From Dehalococcoidia bacterium (GTDB taxonomy: Bacteria; Chloroflexota; Dehalococcoidia; UBA2979): 64,000 bases of DNA. Of this stretch, positions 964 to 54,360 are shown one piece after another. The notes beneath the pieces were generated by a model, which had not been told where the DNA came from, did not search any database, and saw nothing but the letters and a program-made list of their open reading frames with translations. The position numbers and the translations under genes are program-made. The DNA lies in the NCBI GenBank assembly GCA_965219085.1, contig OZ244720.1, positions 1,856,001 to 1,920,000 of the forward strand, in the 5' to 3' direction. Each line of letters begins with the position of its first letter. Position 1 is the first letter of the stretch.

Positions 964-1514
964 CTAGCAGGGTGCTGAAAAAGGCGCGGCCATCTGGCAG
1001 GATGGGGCTGGCGGCGGGGGCATAGCCTGGGAGGCAGCCCCGTGCGAGGTGACGCCGAGCGCCAGACCAACATGTTGCTGGCGGTGACGCCGGACTCCTT
1101 CATCCCGGACGACCACCCGATCCGACGCATCAAACCGATCGTCGATGCCGCGCTGCAGCGGCTCTCGCCGCTGTTCGGCACGATGTACGCAACGAGCGGG
1201 CGGCCCTCGATCCCGCCCGAGCACCTGCTCAAGGCGAGCCTGCTGATCGCGCTCTACTCGGTGCGCAGCGAGCGCCAGTTCTGCGAGCGGCTGCGCTACG
1301 ACCTGCTCTTCAAGTGGTTCTTGGACCTCAACATCTCAGACGCGCCGTTCGACGCCTCGACCTTCTCCAAGAACCGCGAGCGCCTGCTCGCAGCCGATGT
1401 CGCGCGCGCCTTCTTCGCCGAGGTGGTGGCCGAGGCAAAGCGCCGCCGGCTGCTCTCCGCCGAGCACTGCACGGTGGACGGGACGCTGCTCGAGGCGTGG
1501 GCGTCGCTCAAGAG
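964..1514 (+). mobile_element. Left part of an IS5/IS1182-like insertion sequence (left end plus truncated transposase 1042..1514)
   Basis: CTAG followed by CAGGGTGCTGAAAAAG end motif at 964-983. ORF motifs GRPSIPPE, SERQ, FDASTFSKNR and VDGTLLEAWASLK; homology stops after WASLK, where the IS110 element begins. Confidence 0.85.
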
Positions 1515-1624
1515 ATGGCATGAGGGCCGGTCTCTTCCTCAAGGGGGATACTCGCCCCCGAAACAGCGGCCTCGATGGGCCAGAACGGCTCTTTGCGGAG
1601 CTTTGACGAGGTAGGAGACCGGCC

Positions 1625-2713
1625 GTGCAGCAGGATACCGCAACGACGTGGAGCATTGAGGGCAAGGAAGGGTCAGGGGTCACCATCGGCCTCGACGTGG
1701 GCGACCGCTACACCCACGTCCACGCCCTCGGCGCCGGCGGGGAGGTGGTACGTGAGAGGCGCGTCCGCACCACGACGGCAGCGCTGGGCATGGTGCTGAC
1801 CGGCCTCCCCCCATCGCGGGTCGTGATCGAGGCGGGGCCGCGCTCGCCGTGGCTGAGCCGCCTCATGGCGGACCTCGGCCACGAGGTGGTCGTCGCCAAC
1901 CCGCGCCAGGTCGCGCTGATCGCCCGCAGCCAGCGCAAGACCGACCGGCTCGACGCCGAGTGGCTGGCGCGGCTGGGGCGCTTCGACCCCCAGTTGCTCG
2001 CCCCGATCCGCCACCGCAGCGAGGCGAGCCAGCACGACCTCGCCGTGGTGCGCGCCCGCGACGCGCTGGTGCGCTCGCGGACGCTGCTCATCAACCACGT
2101 GCGCGGGGCCGTCAAGGCCTGCGGAGCCGCGTTGCCGTCGTGCACGGCCGAGGCGTTCCACCGCAAGACGGCGGACCACATCCCCGACGGGCTGCGCCCG
2201 GCGCTGCTGCCGCTGGTGGAGGCGATCGGCGAGCTGACCGCGCGCATCGCGGCGGCCGGCCGCGAGATCGAGGCGTTGTGCGAGGCTCACTCCGAGACCG
2301 CGGCGCTGCGCCAGGTCACGGGCGTCGGGCCGATCACCGCGCTCACGTTCGTGCTGACGATCGAGGATCCTGGGCGCTTCCCGAAGAACCGCGAGGTCGG
2401 CGCCTACCTCGGGCTCGTGCCGAGGCAGCGCGACTCGGGCGAGCGCACGCCGCAACTCGGCATCGGCAAGAGCGGCGATCCGCACCTGCGGCGGCTGCTG
2501 GTGCAGGCCGCGCACTACATCCTCGGCCCCTTCGGGCCCGACACCGACCTCCGCCGCTGGGGTGAGCGCTACACCGCTACGGGGGCCGGTAACGCGAAGA
2601 AGCGCGCCGTCGTGGGCGTCGCGAGGCGGCTGGCGGTGCTGCTGCTCGCGCTGTGGAAGACCGGCGAGGTCTACGAGCCGTTGCGCGACGCCGCGGCGCA
2701 GGAGGCCGCGTAG
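1625..2713 (+). CDS. IS110-family DEDD transposase/recombinase, 362 aa, apparently intact
   Basis: IGLDVG, VIEAG, KTDRLDA, GVGPITA, AYLGLVPRQRDSG and G.P.LRRLLVQAA motifs. Confidence 0.93.
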   Translation: MQQDTATTWSIEGKEGSGVTIGLDVGDRYTHVHALGAGGEVVRERRVRTTTAALGMVLTGLPPSRVVIEAGPRSPWLSRLMADLGHEVVVANPRQVALIARSQRKTDRLDAEWLARLGRFDPQLLAPIRHRSEASQHDLAVVRARDALVRSRTLLINHVRGAVKACGAALPSCTAEAFHRKTADHIPDGLRPALLPLVEAIGELTARIAAAGREIEALCEAHSETAALRQVTGVGPITALTFVLTIEDPGRFPKNREVGAYLGLVPRQRDSGERTPQLGIGKSGDPHLRRLLVQAAHYILGPFGPDTDLRRWGERYTATGAGNAKKRAVVGVARRLAVLLLALWKTGEVYEPLRDAAAQEAA

Positions 2714-2799
2714 CAAGGCGCGGCGCCGAAGCAACCGACCAGGAGAGCGAGACTGAGACGGACCTGGGAGGAGGCCCAGCAAACCAACCACTGCACGTG

Positions 2800-2975
2800 A
2801 TGCCGGGCAACGGGCGACTGCGAGGCGGTAGCGGTCCAACAAGGACGTTCAAGAGTTGGCAGCGCCCCCTGGAAGCAGGATGTGCCTTCATGCACCGGGC
2901 CCGATACGTGGCCCATCAAAGAGTGCGGATAGAAGCTCGGCACAGGCTCCGTCAGGGGACATCACGAGCGGATCG
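2800..2975 (+). ncRNA. Candidate bridge/seek RNA of the IS1111-type element
   Basis: Non-coding region downstream of tnp with stem-loops. TCAAGAG (2849-2855) equals the left target flank plus core; ATAGAAG (2929-2935) equals the element right end plus core. Boundaries approximate. Confidence 0.65.
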
Positions 2976-3037
2976 GCCCCGATGTCGAGGAGCGCCACGC
3001 CCCGAGGAGGAAGCCGCCACGTCGGCCTTGCAGAAAG

Positions 3038-3948
3038 GTCGGGTAAGGGGCTGGCGCGGTACGAGCCGTAGGCAGTGGCGCTTATCCCGCCGGTTTCCCG
3101 CCGGTGCTCACTTCCACGTGCCGTAGCCAACGCCCGTTTCCAGCCCCTCCCCTTCGAACCGTGCATGCGGTTCTCCCGCACACGGCTCACCGACGTCCTT
3201 CACCGGATGGCATTCGGCCCCGCCCGCCACGCACGCTCCACAACGTCCCTGCGGTGGACTTTGTCGTAGAGCGCGTGAAAACGTCGCTCGGCTCGGCCTT
3301 GGCCGCCCGGTAGAGCGTGTGCTGTAGTTCTCGGACCTTTTGCTCGGCGGTTCTAGCCACGACGGGCACTCGCCAATCCTTCCCCAAGCTACACGCGCAG
3401 ACGAAGTAGCGGCCCTTCCCTCACCGGCGGTTCTGTTGTCCGCTCGGCTCAATCGGTACTATGGCCGCCTCCGACTCCCTCCCGGCCGGCTACCCACTTC
3501 CCGGTTCGTCACCGGTTATAGGGCACCTCGCTCCGGCACCAATCCGCAGGCGCCGGACCGGGGAGGGCCTCCCCAGTTCCCGCCGTCACCTTCCACACGT
3601 TCCGCGCCCTCTACGCCGGGAGGTTCTTCGGGGTTGCGCCTCCAGGCTCTTCACCCCTTCCATGGCCTTCGCCCTGACGGCCGGGGCTCGGCTCCTCCTT
3701 GTTCCCACCATGCGGTGGGTATGTTCACGACGCGGCAGACTTCGCTTCATGCTGCGGACCGCGTGGTCGCTCCCCCTCAAGGGCTTTCGACATCGGGCTC
3801 CGGCCCGGCCCGTTTCCAGACCCGACCGCCGATCTGCTACCGGGCCCCCTGGCAGTTACCCGGACCGGACTTTCACCGGTAGGCGACGACGAGCATGTCT
3901 CCGGACTGATCAGATCATTCTGCACCGTCCTTCGACTTCAGGGCGCAC
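3038..3948 (-). mobile_element. Group II intron (911 nt), non-autonomous, with internally deleted RT ORF
   Basis: 5' end GTGCGCCC at 3948. Domain V GAGCCGTGTGCGGGAGAACCGCATGCACGGTTC (~3156-3188). Domain VI ends CCTTACCCGAC at 3038. Hairpin-loop GCCGUC (3676-3681) can pair with the 5'-exon end GACGGU. Removing the intron restores the IS inverted repeat. Confidence 0.9.
3200..3369 (-). pseudogene. Remnant of group II intron reverse transcriptase/maturase (N-terminus fused to last codons)
   Basis: KVRELQHTLYRAAKAEP, then frameshifted RRFHALYDKVHRRDV, typical of intron RT N-termini. No YADD domain; joins directly to the region just before domain V. Confidence 0.8.
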
Positions 3949-3965
3949 ACCGTCCCTCATAGAAG

Positions 3966-4270
3966 TGACCGCTGCGGCTCGGAGGCGTCGCCGGGACTGT
4001 CGTCAGCACCCGCCTCGACCGCGGCGACCTCCGCCGCGACCGGCTCGGGTGCGGCCCACGCGGCGTCGACGAGCAGCGCTTCGGCGTCCGCGGCGACTTG
4101 CTGCGCCTGGGCGAAGACCGACTCGACCGAGCCGGCATCCTCCTCGCCGGCGATGATCTTCCTGGCCAGCGCCAGCATCAGGTCGTCACCGTCGTCCCAG
4201 CGCCACTCGAAGACGCACAGCGTCGGAGCCTCGCGCCGACTCCGCGCCTTCGGCTCCGGCTGCTCGCCGG
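3966..4270 (-). pseudogene. Rearranged C-terminal fragments of ICE-type SF2 helicase
   Basis: DLMLALARKIIAGEEDAGSVESVFAQAQQ and EAPTL.VFEW pieces match the fragment at 58054-58620. Confidence 0.75.
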
Positions 4271-4274
4271 CCCC

Positions 4275-4685
4275 CTATCGGAGCAGGGCGACGAAGCCAG
4301 CCTGCACGAAGTCCCGGTCGTGAGCGAGTGCCTCCGAGATCCCTCGCTCCTCCATGACAAGGAAGCTCGCGCAGTCGGTGAGACTCTAGGTCTGATCCGG
4401 GCGGCTGGCGTAGCGCTCGACGGCGGCCCGGAACTGCGCGTCCGTCTGCGGGGTCACCTCGACGTTTTGGCTGCGTTCGGCCCGCTCCACAACCCCATAG
4501 GCCAGGGACCGCTGTCGTTCCCCTCGGCTCCCGAAGATGTTGAGCATCTCGACCAGCACCATCTGGGTGGTCACGATGCGGCGCGGCCCGAGCGCCCTTG
4601 TCAGAGCGAGTGCCTTCTCGTGCAGCCTGTCACGAGGATCCTCAAGTGCGACCCAGTACCCCGTATCTGCGAATACGTCGCTCAC
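4275..4685 (-). pseudogene. PIN-domain (VapC-like) toxin with internal nonsense codon
   Basis: VFADTGYW start. After TAG at 4386-4388 the frame continues SLTDCASFLVMEERGISEALAHDRDFVQAGF to a stop at 4275; the TAG sits where W of WSLTDC is expected. Confidence 0.85.
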
Positions 4686-4954
4686 AGGTTCCGGTCCTTC
4701 GGGTGGCCGTACAAGTAGTGCTTGTAGTTCTCGGCGAGGTCATGGGGCCGATCGTCACGCTCGTCGGCTGGCGCGGACGCGTGCAGTTCCTCGATGAGTT
4801 GCACAAGGGCCCCCCCGCTTCCTTCAGCCCCCTCCTGCGACGCACGCGATGTGTCATCCATCGACACCGTCACCTCCGCGCCCTCGTCCAGGTCGACAGG
4901 CTCCGTAGGCGTGAACACGCCATTGGCGTAGGTAGCCTTCACAGTTGTGGTCAT
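4682..4954 (-). CDS. Antitoxin, DUF104/AF2212-like
   Basis: MTTTVKATYANGVFTP...DLAENYKHYLYG. Stop overlaps the PIN start (GTGA); GGAGG RBS upstream. Confidence 0.8.
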   Translation of the reverse strand: MTTTVKATYANGVFTPTEPVDLDEGAEVTVSMDDTSRASQEGAEGSGGALVQLIEELHASAPADERDDRPHDLAENYKHYLYGHPKDRNL

Positions 4955-5870: not shown

Positions 5871-7373
5871 CTATCTTCTTCGTCAAGGCCATCGGGCTCC
5901 TGAAGCTGGCTGAGTCGACGTCATCACGCGGCGACCGGACGGTCGTGCGGGATCTTCGCCCGGTACGGCCGGCGCGAGCGGAGCATGGCCAGGATGACGT
6001 CGCAGCGCCGGCGCGCGAGGCAGATGACCGCGGCGTTGTGTCGCTTCCCCTCGGCGCGCTTGCGGTCGTAGAAGGCCCTCGAGGCGGGGTCTCGCAACGA
6101 GGCGAAGGCGGCGAGGAACATCGCGTTCTTGAGCCTGTGGTTGCCGCGCCGGCTGCGCGCCTCGCCGCGGAGGCTGGAGCCCGACTGGCGTGTCACCGGC
6201 GCGAGTCCGGCGTAGCTCGCGAGCCTCGATCCGTTAGCGAAGCGGGAGCCGTCGCCGATCTCAGCGAGGATCCTCGACCCTGTCCGGGGGCCGATGCCCG
6301 GCAGCGTCCGGAGGATGCGTCCGAAAGGGTGTGCCTCGAAGAGGGCCTCGATCTCGGCCTCGAGCCGCTTGCGGCGCTCCAGCGTGCGGTCGAGTTCGGC
6401 GACCACCTCGGCGATCACGCGCCCCGTCACGGCCTCGACGGGCACGACGACGGTCTGCGCGTCGAGGGCCTCGGCGACGGTCGCGGCCAAAGCCTTCGCG
6501 AGGCGCGGCGAGCGCTTCCGCACCACCCGCGCGATCCGGCCGCGCCCGGCCGCAGCCAAGGCTTGGGGCACCGGGTGGCGGGTGAGGAGGTCGCGTACGC
6601 CCGGATGGTGCAGCCTGGGACCCAGAACGCGCTCCAGGGCCGGGGACACGCTCGTCAGCCGTCCCGCAGCCGGTTGGAGAGCCGCGTGGCGTCCGCGGCG
6701 AGGTCGGTGTCGTAGCCGTTGAGGACGCGCAGCTGATCGAGCAGCTCGTCGTCGCCGGCGTCGAGCCAGTGCACCTGGTGGCGCCGGGTGCGGCCGGTGT
6801 CGGCGATCACGAAGGCGTCGCGGCGGTCGGTCTTGGCCTCGCCCGGGTAGAGGTCGGCGGCGCGGCGCATGACCAGGCCGGGCACGTATGCGACCGGCAC
6901 ACCGAGGCGCGCAGCGACGGCGAGCACGAGGCTGGCGAGCGAGCCGGGCTGGTCGACGACCAGCGCAGGGGTACCGAGGGCCTGGGCGCGGCCGAGGAGC
7001 GCCTCGATGTCGGCCTCGCCGTTGGCCACGGCGCCGGCGAACAGCGGCGAGCCCGCGGCGTCCAGCACTTCAGCGAAATGTTCTGCCTTGCCGATGTCGA
7101 GGCCAATCCACACGTCGATGTCGTCGGGCGTTCCCACTGCGGCTCCTCATGGGTGCTTCGTCCACTCGTCCGGAAGGCCGCAGGTGCGCGCGCCGTCATC
7201 CACCTTACGAATCAGCGATCAGGTCGCATGTCCCCATCAGAGGTTCACGCACCGAGCAGCGCCGGTGGCAACACCCCCCAAGGCCGTCGAGCGACAGGGG
7301 GCACTGAGCCATGCCGGCACTGCCGGACTCCCGGCCCGGGAACCTACCCAGGCCGCAGGAAGAAGGTAAGGGG
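5871..7373 (-). mobile_element. IS110-family element (IS900/actinobacterial type, upstream non-coding region)
   Basis: Transposase 7137->5924. Right end carries TTGACG (-35-like) and appears truncated. Left junction reads CATGCGTACCCCCT|TAC. Confidence 0.8.
5924..7137 (-). pseudogene. IS110 transposase split by a 1-bp frameshift near 6660
   Basis: WIGLDIGK, VVDQP and KTDRRDA in 6655..7137; PGIGPRTG, LASYAGLAPVTRQSG and GNHRLK in 5924..6649. Confidence 0.88.
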
Positions 7374-54114: not shown

Positions 54115-54360
54115 AGGGCGGCACTGCTGCCGCTGCTCGATGTGGTCGGCGAAGTGACCGCCCGCATCGCCGCCGCCGAGCGGGAGATCGAGGCGCTGTG
54201 CCGGTCTACCCCGAGACGGCGGCGCTGCGCCAGGTCGCCGGCGTGGGTCCCATCACCGCGCTCACGTTCGTGCTGACGGTGGAGGATCCCGCGCAACCGC
54301 GAGGTGGCTGCCTACCTCGGGCTCGTGCCGAGGCAGCGCTTCCCGACCCGGGGAGCAGCG
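54115..54360 (+). pseudogene. Degraded IS110 transposase fragment, paralogue of 1625..2713
   Basis: ETAALRQVAGVGPITALTFVLTVEDP...YLGLVPRQR. Confidence 0.85.

Follow-up and report, generated by a model that had tools for sequence, protein, structure and literature searches.

The 64,000-nucleotide (nt) stretch analyzed here (the window, positions 1,856,001 to 1,920,000 of contig OZ244720.1 in the Dehalococcoidia bacterium assembly GCA_965219085.1) carries at positions 1513 to 3963 an insertion sequence (IS) of the IS110 family and IS1111 type, comprising 1540 bp of IS proper and a 911-nt intron insert. With high confidence, we interpret it as a recently active element whose downstream bridge RNA (seekRNA) carries guides directed at the transposase gene of another IS, one of the IS1182 family. 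The mechanism is already known from published bridge RNA and seekRNA elements; the class of target and the natural series of guides are new. An earlier interpretation made from the letters of the window alone (here, the sequence-only reading) had proposed as its central idea an RNA programmed for a site inside a transposase gene of the IS1182/IS5 family, and this idea is borne out by the flanks of four further copies, by eight empty sites, and by the match of the interrupted gene to the NCBIfam model NF033551.

A search of the 3.3-Mb genome recovered 11 near-full copies of the IS, five of which (the window copy, W, and copies A, B, C, and D) are 100% identical. W has an intact transposase frame, guides, and ends and agrees with the other four over the shared 1524 bases except at one base common to W and A. 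Copies B, C, and D are without bases 3038 to 3948 and read ...TTGCAGAAAG|ACCGTCCCTCATAGAAG at this point; hence, the IS proper measures 1540 bp and the intron is a later insert in W and A, giving an intron-bearing form of 2451 bp. The outer limits proposed in the sequence-only reading (left, about 1513/1515; right, 3963/3965) were correct, as the three intron-free identical copies end in ...CCGTCCCTCATAGAAG and share the same left end. That left end, ATGGCATGAGGGCCGG (1515 to 1535, plus strand, read directly), contains the subterminal inverted repeat ATGAGGGCCGG at 1520 to 1530 and recurs in 11 copies of this genome. The right end (3949 to 3963, plus strand), which reads ...CCGTCCCTCATAGA before the core AG, contains the inverted repeat CCGTCCCTCAT at 3950 to 3960, followed by the 3-bp extension AGA. 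The dinucleotide AG occurs once in the empty site CTCAAGAGCTACC and at each junction of a filled one (CTCAAGAG|ATGGCA...CATAGAAG|CTACC), which marks it as a 2-nt core rather than a target duplication. Its left copy lies at 1513 to 1514 (plus strand), as placed by comparing empty with filled sites, and its right copy at 3964 to 3965 (plus strand), as placed by comparing the copies.

The target element is represented in the window by the 5′ part of an IS1182/IS5 family transposase gene (1042 to 1512, plus strand) that encodes the N-terminal 157 residues and is cut after ...EAWASLK. This fragment matches Pfam DUF772 (1.3e-22) and NCBIfam NF033551 (transpos_IS1182, 6.6e-36), the latter below the cutoff of the model because the gene is incomplete. 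Copies A to D have IS1182 sequence on both sides and occupy exactly the same site in the same orientation (...GCTCAAG-AG|IS|-CTACCGCCCGCGCGAC), and all eight uninterrupted IS1182 paralogues found in the genome with a 12-mer read TCAAGAGCTACC, i.e., CTCAAGAG-CTACCGCC, which translates as EAWASLKSYRPRDE with the codons K-S-Y-R. The insertion site is in a conserved stretch of the IS1182 gene, ...EAWASLK|S.... Five complete copies of the IS occupy it, as does the rearranged window copy with its left half, and eight such sites are empty. The sequence-only reading had predicted that the target continues as AG-CTTCC (K-S-F-R) and had named a different continuation in the intact gene as telling against it; all eight intact genes read AG-CTACC.

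The gene for the bridge RNA is predicted to lie downstream of the transposase gene, approximately at 2793 to 2972 (plus strand), on the basis of a conserved block with two hypervariable guide segments and a consensus fold. We aligned the downstream regions of the 10 complete copies of this genome and then those of relatives and found that two blocks are the only hypervariable segments of an otherwise conserved noncoding region, in the window AGGCGGTAGCG (2823 to 2833) and TTCAAGAGTT (2848 to 2857). The first holds the right target guide GGCGGTAGC (2824 to 2832, plus strand), which is complementary to the target top strand GCTACCGCC, that is, to the second core base and the right flank. Its complementarity is perfect (9/9) to the right flank of copies A to D and of the empty sites, in which GCTACCGCC follows CTCAAGAG. 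The second block holds the left target guide TCAAGAG (2849 to 2855, plus strand), which has the same sense as the left flank plus the core. The sequence-only reading had drawn this guide from a 12/13 match between TCAAGAGATGGCA (1508 to 1520) and TCAAGAGTTGGCA (2849 to 2861), which we confirmed; in a search of the window allowing at most one mismatch, only these two positions matched, against 0.01 expected from shuffled sequences. By analogy with the IS621 complex, as described in PMC11208158, the TTG that follows at 2856 to 2858 may be a handshake guide directed toward the left end of the IS. Other copies in the same genome carry other guides at correspondingly different sites: copies E, F, and J have the guides GGCAGAG and CACCCACT and lie at GGC(C/A)GAG|TGGGTG, copy I has CCGCATAG and AGGCTGCT and lies at CCGCATAG|CAGCCTG, and copy G has CCACCAG and GAGCTGCT and lies at CCACCAG|CAGCTCG.

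This correspondence extends to relatives of the element. Within the order, 8 of 99 genomes carry the transposase, namely that of the window, 5 of the 18 other genomes of its genus, and 2 of 5 in a second genus. We collected 59 loci from eight related genomes, of which 55 could be parsed into 39 unique sites with 16 guide types; in the four left out (L011, L024, L041, and L043), an end or a guide block was not located. Each site was scored over six bases on the left and seven on the right, with the core excluded. Guides matched their own flanks at a mean of 10/13 positions and the flanks of other guide types at 4.48/13, and scores of 10 or more were reached by 27/39 own-flank pairs against 3/585 other-flank pairs, figures that are descriptive and not a probability, given the relatedness of the loci and the targets common to several sites. 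The left-flank scores of L022, L024, and L062, meaningless owing to an intron in the left end, were kept among the low scorers. Covariation between guides and flanks, the absence of which the sequence-only reading had named as telling against it, is thus present, with both blocks changing together with the flanks; the block at 2824 to 2832, in particular, changes along with the target in the 16 guide types. In one locus, L123 of genome G076, the left guide known from one type (GAAGCAG) is joined to a right guide block unlike that of the type, which suggests that the two blocks can be exchanged independently. Among more distant relatives, neither the 26 loci L125 to L150 (54 to 61% identity, other phyla) nor L118 (69%) matched the anchor patterns for the guide blocks.

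The same comparison bears on whether the protein alone chooses the target, with the conserved downstream region being merely regulatory, as a terminator or as the 3′ untranslated region of the transposase gene. The contigs examined gave no RNA evidence, and most of the predicted helices are invariant, both of which this explanation would accommodate. It is nevertheless very improbable: transposases 86 to 100% identical to one another occupy unrelated targets, with each change of target mirrored in both noncoding blocks, and published relatives need the RNA, according to PMC11187229 and PMC11208160. Over a wider range, transposases 63 to 100% identical to that of the window carry at least 16 different guide pairs.

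The guides for the element itself, as donor, are found farther downstream. The sequence-only reading had noted that ATAGAAG (2929 to 2935, plus strand) equals the right end plus the core (3959 to 3965), and comparison of ends with guides supports its role as the right-end donor guide. It matches the right end and core 7/7 in all 11 distinct end/guide combinations of the relatives, three of which show covariation, with the guide reading ATGGAAG where CATGGAAG forms the right end. TGCCTTC (2883 to 2889, plus strand), complementary at six of seven positions to G+ATGGCA at the junction of the core and the left end, is the probable left-end donor guide. Matched changes of left end and guide in some families point the same way (CCCCATC with GATGGGA; ..TCATC with GATGA...), and this assignment is weaker than those of the other three guides.

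A consensus fold of 18 related sequences computed with RNAalifold places these guides in the following predicted architecture. An enclosing stem pairs GCCG (2802 to 2805) with CGGC (2938 to 2941). Within it, a predicted target-binding stem-loop (2812 to 2867, plus strand) has an outer stem of GGGCGaCTGC (2812 to 2821) with GCAGCGCCC (2859 to 2867) and an inner hairpin of GTCC (2834 to 2837) with GGAC (2843 to 2846); its pairs are invariant in all 18 sequences, so covariation neither supports nor contradicts it. A small structural hairpin, CCUG-GAAG-CAGG (2868 to 2879, plus strand), follows, with four invariant stem pairs. A further hairpin (GCACCGGGCC...GGCCC...GTGC; 2892 to 2928, plus strand) separates the two donor guides. 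Overall, 99.1% of the cells of the consensus fold are paired, and compensatory change is seen in three pairs (five cells), all in the hairpin at 2892 to 2928. This fold would put the donor guides in a multiloop, an arrangement that Durrant et al. (PMC11208160) noted for many IS1111 bridge RNAs. At the gathering score, no Rfam family matched the guide RNA region (2714 to 3037), the only two matches in the window both being to the intron.

Against this background, we give almost no credence to the wiring in the sequence-only reading, which had GGAAGC (2871 to 2876) as the right target guide and CCGTC (2949 to 2953) as the left-end donor guide, on a stem AAGGACGT/ATGTGCCTT (ATGT-G-CCTT). GGAAGC is complementary to GCTTCC, one base off the real flank GCTACC, and IS1182-like genes of other organisms in read data, seen as loose ends at 1503, do read AAGAGCTTC. 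However, GGAAGC is conserved although the targets differ, being identical in the 10 copies of this genome and in 10/18 aligned sequences, with the other eight, from two subfamilies, having GCAAGC or GGAGAC irrespective of target; this constancy excludes it as a target guide. It falls in the loop and 3′ stem of the small hairpin described above, the loop of which is GAAG in 10/18, GAGA in 5/18, and CAAG in 3/18 sequences, whatever the target. CCGTC, in turn, varies (CCGCG, CCTCT, and CCGCC) while the left end is constant, and it is therefore not a donor guide. The stem is paired in 77% of cells over the 18 sequences, shows no compensatory change, and has four of its eight pairs broken in five to nine sequences. 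The perfect 9-nt guide that covaries with the target lies elsewhere, at 2824 to 2832.

The transposase gene (1625 to 2713, plus strand, GTG start) encodes a 362-amino-acid (aa) DEDD/serine enzyme of the IS110 family, with matches to PF01548 (2.8e-19) and PF02371 (4.6e-20) in Pfam and to NF033542 in NCBIfam (240.1 bits against a cutoff of 140). It shows the N-terminal RuvC-like DEDD domain and the C-terminal Transposase_20 domain with a catalytic Ser-Gly that define the family, and D24, E69, D107, D110, S271, and G272 are invariant in 10 relatives. The published hallmarks of the IS1111 group are subterminal inverted repeats of about 11 to 13 bp, terminal extensions (7 bp left, 3 bp right), a longer noncoding region downstream, and a GL-P----S(T)G motif. 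Correspondingly, ATGAGGGCCGG and the reverse complement of CCGTCCCTCAT form an 11-bp subterminal repeat with a 10/11 match, the terminal extensions measure 7 bp (AGATGGC, with AG counted on the left) and 3 bp (AGA), 110 nt precede the gene (1515 to 1624) against 339 nt of noncoding sequence downstream of it once the intron is removed, and the C-terminal domain contains GLVPRQRDSG. The guide order likewise agrees with that of IS1111 seekRNAs as given in PMC11187229, where the complement of the top strand stands 5′ of the match to the bottom strand and the two overlap in the target; here, the segment at 2824 to 2832 precedes that at 2849 to 2855, and they overlap at the core G. On sequence hallmarks and guide order, the element is assigned to the IS1111 group, in agreement with the sequence-only reading, which had described an IS1111-type IS110 element with a downstream guide RNA.

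The closest published systems are the IS1111 elements with seekRNAs (ISEc11, ISKpn4, ISPst6, and ISPa11; Siddiquee et al. 2024, PMC11187229), which share with the element described here the DEDD transposase, the long downstream noncoding region, the 11-bp subterminal repeats, the 7-bp and 3-bp extensions, the guide order, and insertion in a single orientation at a specific site with no true target duplication. They differ in targeting REP (repetitive extragenic palindromic) sequences, attC, or a short linear site, whereas the sites targeted here are in coding sequences or ends of other IS elements and of group II introns; in addition, the present transposase has 362 aa against the 330 to 350 aa quoted for the IS1111 family, and the present element is known from sequence alone. 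With IS621 and ISCro4 (Durrant 2024, PMC11208160; Hiraizumi 2024, PMC11208158), it has in common a two-part guide logic, in which target and donor are each read by a left and a right guide, and an exchange that takes place at a core of 2 nt, possibly followed by handshake bases. Unlike in those systems, the RNA is here encoded 3′ of the gene, with the order of the guides inverted and the donor guides in a multiloop, and the core is AG instead of CT. The transposase is only remotely similar to the solved IS621/ISCro4 chains (E of about 1e-6, C-terminal domain only).

The anatomy, the family membership, and the complementarity and covariation of guides with flanks were established here, and the production of the RNA, its binding by the transposase, and the chemistry are carried over from the published relatives. 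On that precedent, the 5′ side of the target loop (GGCGGUAGC) would pair with the top strand to the right of the crossover and its 3′ side (UCAAGAG) with the bottom strand to the left. AUAGAAG, corresponding to the right end plus core, and UGCCUUC, the complement of the core plus left end, would jointly bind the IS in its excised, circular form. The strands would then be exchanged at the common AG core, placing the IS in one orientation between the codons K and S of ...WASLK|SYR..., and the insertion would inactivate the IS1182 family element.

The remaining guide types likewise have matching sites in or beside other mobile elements. In the genome of the window, where sister copies sit in IS1380, IS3, and IS110 elements, the first type targets the IS1182 family gene; the second lies antisense in the C-terminal ...GRLTHSARRW... 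stretch of an IS1380 family gene (NF033539, 334.8 bits); the third targets the ...YNTKRPH|SSLGW... motif of an IS3 family gene (NF033516, 191.3 bits), for which there are 10 empty sites; and the fourth is directed to a site just upstream of another IS110 family gene. Targets in the relatives include istA, istB, and a site 68 nt upstream of istA in IS21 elements; ISNCY elements, both inside the gene and just upstream; regions upstream of IS110 family genes; sites 83 nt upstream and 108 nt downstream of IS1182 family genes; and two places in group II introns, as identified with Pfam, NCBIfam, and Rfam. For each of the 16 guide types, one or more of the matching sites lie inside another mobile element or no more than a few hundred bases from one, and some types also have sites elsewhere (L032, L051, L060, and L061). 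This survey is to be read with the qualifications that the loci were picked by protein score and not at random, that a multicopy IS is bound to have multicopy targets, and that the genomes are related. Repeated DNA (at least 200 bp, with at least 80% identity elsewhere) makes up 16.0% of the 3.3-Mb genome, a very large share for a bacterial genome of that length. Homing to another mobile element is a habit shared with known IS1111-type elements, but those target transposon ends, whereas here a single genome has four sister guide types aimed at the reading frames of three transposases and at the upstream region of one IS, with five more kinds of site targeted in relatives. We found no publication on an IS110 family lineage that targets the genes of other IS elements, although the target logos for more than 300 IS elements in the supplements of PMC11208160 and PMC11187229 may list such cases.

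Some copies occupy sites that their own guides do not specify. Genome G079 has five copies of one element that are identical over 1527 bases (0 differences), three of them at sites fitting their own guides; the other two, L025 and L040, sit at TTTT(T/C)CAG|CAGCCT, a site to which the guides of another element correspond, one that is abundant in G079 and whose protein is 75% identical to that of the window. In the genome of the window, copy H (G000:C1:340399-341913) has the type 2 (IS1380) guides, yet it lies in the IS1182 site and has an extra A in its left end (AGATAGGCATG), and L064 similarly has guides that do not match its own site. The authors of the IS621 structure (PMC11208158) concluded that a single complex draws its target loop from one RNA molecule and its donor loop from another, which makes the borrowing of a neighbor's target loop a reasonable interpretation; the distribution of these copies suggests that guides of coresident elements are used in trans. 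An alternative without such borrowing is that H, L025, L040, and L064 owe their positions to former guides of their own, since replaced through recombination with sister elements. Copy H is indeed a mosaic, its first ~300 bases agreeing with copy I at 91% and with copy E at 79%, and the remainder being 100% identical to E and F, and L123 combines guides of different types. L025 and L040, however, are identical over 1527 bases to the three copies at cognate sites, so that the whole element would have needed replacement, and the sequences beside them correspond to the guides of another element, abundant in G079. For these identical copies, recombination seems unlikely on sequence grounds; for the whole set of misplaced copies, we hold overwriting to be the less favored account, with a substantial minority chance.

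The downstream part of W proved to be a composite. The sequence-only reading had taken 3038 to 3948 for noncoding DNA of the IS; in fact, 911 of some 1250 bases are a group II intron (minus strand) that contains no open reading frame (ORF) for an intron protein, lies between the downstream noncoding region and the right inverted repeat, and is missing from three of the five identical copies. It begins on the minus strand with GTGCGCCC, giving the 5′ GUGCG of group II introns, and contains domains I to IV (RF02003, 3747 to 3882, 95.1 bits) and the domain V/VI core (RF00029, 3038 to 3190, 44.8 bits), the only Rfam families in the 64 kb. We detected no intron-encoded reverse transcriptase (RT) or maturase in the 911-nt insert, in which the minus-strand frames are only short remnants (ORFs of 66 to 114 aa); the intron would depend on a protein supplied in trans. 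The genome has two full copies, both in this IS (W and A), and a 477-nt fragment (G000:C1:3165839-3166316) that is 87% identical. A second, RT-bearing group II intron (RF02005, 159 to 170 bits) is inserted after the first base of the IS left end, on the opposite strand, in L022, L024, and L062; the junction ...CCAGTTAGCCGGGCGCTC|TGGCATGAG of these loci is that of this intron and not an odd target. Conversely, two IS guide types target this kind of intron, one at a point 10 nt from the 5′ end (L063) and the other between domains I to IV and the RT gene (L027). Thus, with introns in the ends of the IS and IS guides aimed at introns, the two kinds of element invade each other.

Taken together, these findings incline us, by a small degree, to view the IS1111-type lineage of Tepidiformaceae-like Dehalococcoidia as a specialist parasite of other mobile elements. 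In such a lineage, guides would have been rewritten at least 16 times, with matching sites in or beside IS elements or group II introns, often in coding DNA for conserved motifs; target loops would be borrowed in trans, and introns would invade both ends of the IS, forming a reciprocal network of parasites upon parasites.

The left flank of W is a perfect IS1182 half-site, whereas its right flank, TGACCGCTGCGG... (TGACCGCT...), has no IS1182 continuation and belongs instead to the C-terminal tail of a repeated helicase-like gene (3966 to 4200, gene on the minus strand), of which the genome has more than 12 partial paralogues, 79 to 93% identical; paralogues read GAGAACAG|CGACCGCTGCGG at this position. 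The combination of an IS1182 half-site on the left with a foreign right flank marks W as a rearranged hybrid copy. It possibly arose by recombination between two IS copies with loss of the intervening DNA; another possible origin, by analogy with events outlined in two 2026 preprints, is a half-matched RNA-guided insertion. One could also regard W as a dead relic, in which the intron and the foreign right flank indicate immobility and the guide match is purely historical. The right flank is not the cognate target, and the intron puts 911 nt between the right end and the rest of the element. Yet the transposase frame, the guides, and both ends are intact and identical to those of the other four copies; the intron-bearing copy A interrupts another IS1182 copy and has cognate sequence on either side, as would be expected if the 2451-bp form had transposed, with two separate homing events as the alternative; and excision is reported in a preprint (10.64898/2026.08.31.748434) to need recognition by the donor arm only. 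We therefore consider the relic interpretation rather improbable and retain that of a recently active element.

Several observations weigh against the interpretation of W as an RNA-programmed element. In the guide-to-flank comparison, 12/39 sites score below 10/13 against their own guides. The right flank of W matches the right guide at 5/7 positions, and the left guide would match the helicase-like site poorly. The left-end donor guide forms 5 to 6 Watson-Crick pairs of 7 in the nine end/guide combinations with an uninterrupted left end. As for the fold, 25/31 consensus pairs never vary, and most of the structure comes from thermodynamic prediction; folded by itself, the window sequence from 2793 to 2972 takes on the consensus architecture, with a stability no greater than that of shuffled sequences (z = -1.09; 30/200 shuffles as stable). 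Contigs of two metatranscriptome libraries of one study (X17 and X18) cover 3036 to 3895, the intron part, and small pieces elsewhere but not 2793 to 2972, although contigs cannot show absence, and no circle junction, empty-site joint, or new insertion is listed among the contigs of four sequencing runs.

The natural series of reprogrammed guides, along with donor guides that covary with the ends, offers a ready data set for the guide rules of the less-studied IS1111 architecture. Consistent landing in other transposons fits a safe-harbor strategy, since such sites are multicopy, harmless to the host, and travel with mobile DNA; the same choice of target also means that the element disables other IS elements. 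Identical copies at sites specified by a neighbor, together with hybrid junctions, would be natural evidence that the target and donor loops come from different RNA molecules, as so far inferred from a structure. The aiming of a whole lineage at mobile elements, the natural guide series, and the signs of guide use in trans are the parts most worth following up.

A number of smaller observations concern the IS and its surroundings. Tandem arrays of partial pieces of the noncoding region and right end follow some copies, with five right ends after copy I, two after G, two after F, and three in L049 (G000:C1:2849990-2850740, 893306-893397, 1261320-1261394, and L049); every new piece begins after an AG, and the arrays may reflect in-place duplication, by analogy with that described for expanded IS110 loci in a preprint (10.64898/2026.08.14.744561). 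Positions 54119 to 54339 of the window (G000:C1:1910119-1910339) hold a 221-nt fragment that matches the central part of the transposase gene at 81% identity. In an RNA library contig from another study, the same intron as in W abuts the right-end region of a related IS, seen as a loose end before 3036. A DNA contig of run X1, which may be the source of the assembly, spans the right junction of W. Just upstream of the IS1182 fragment, positions 31 to 777 form a tandem array of a 177-bp unit (4.2 copies, 96% matches) that may run off the start of the window. On the other side of the IS, a PIN domain ORF (99 aa) overlaps an AF2212-like ORF (90 aa) at 4386 to 4954 (minus strand) in what looks like a VapBC-type toxin-antitoxin pair, and a 241-aa ORF at 5924 to 6649 (minus strand) has only the Transposase_20 domain of another IS110 family transposase and is probably a truncated copy.

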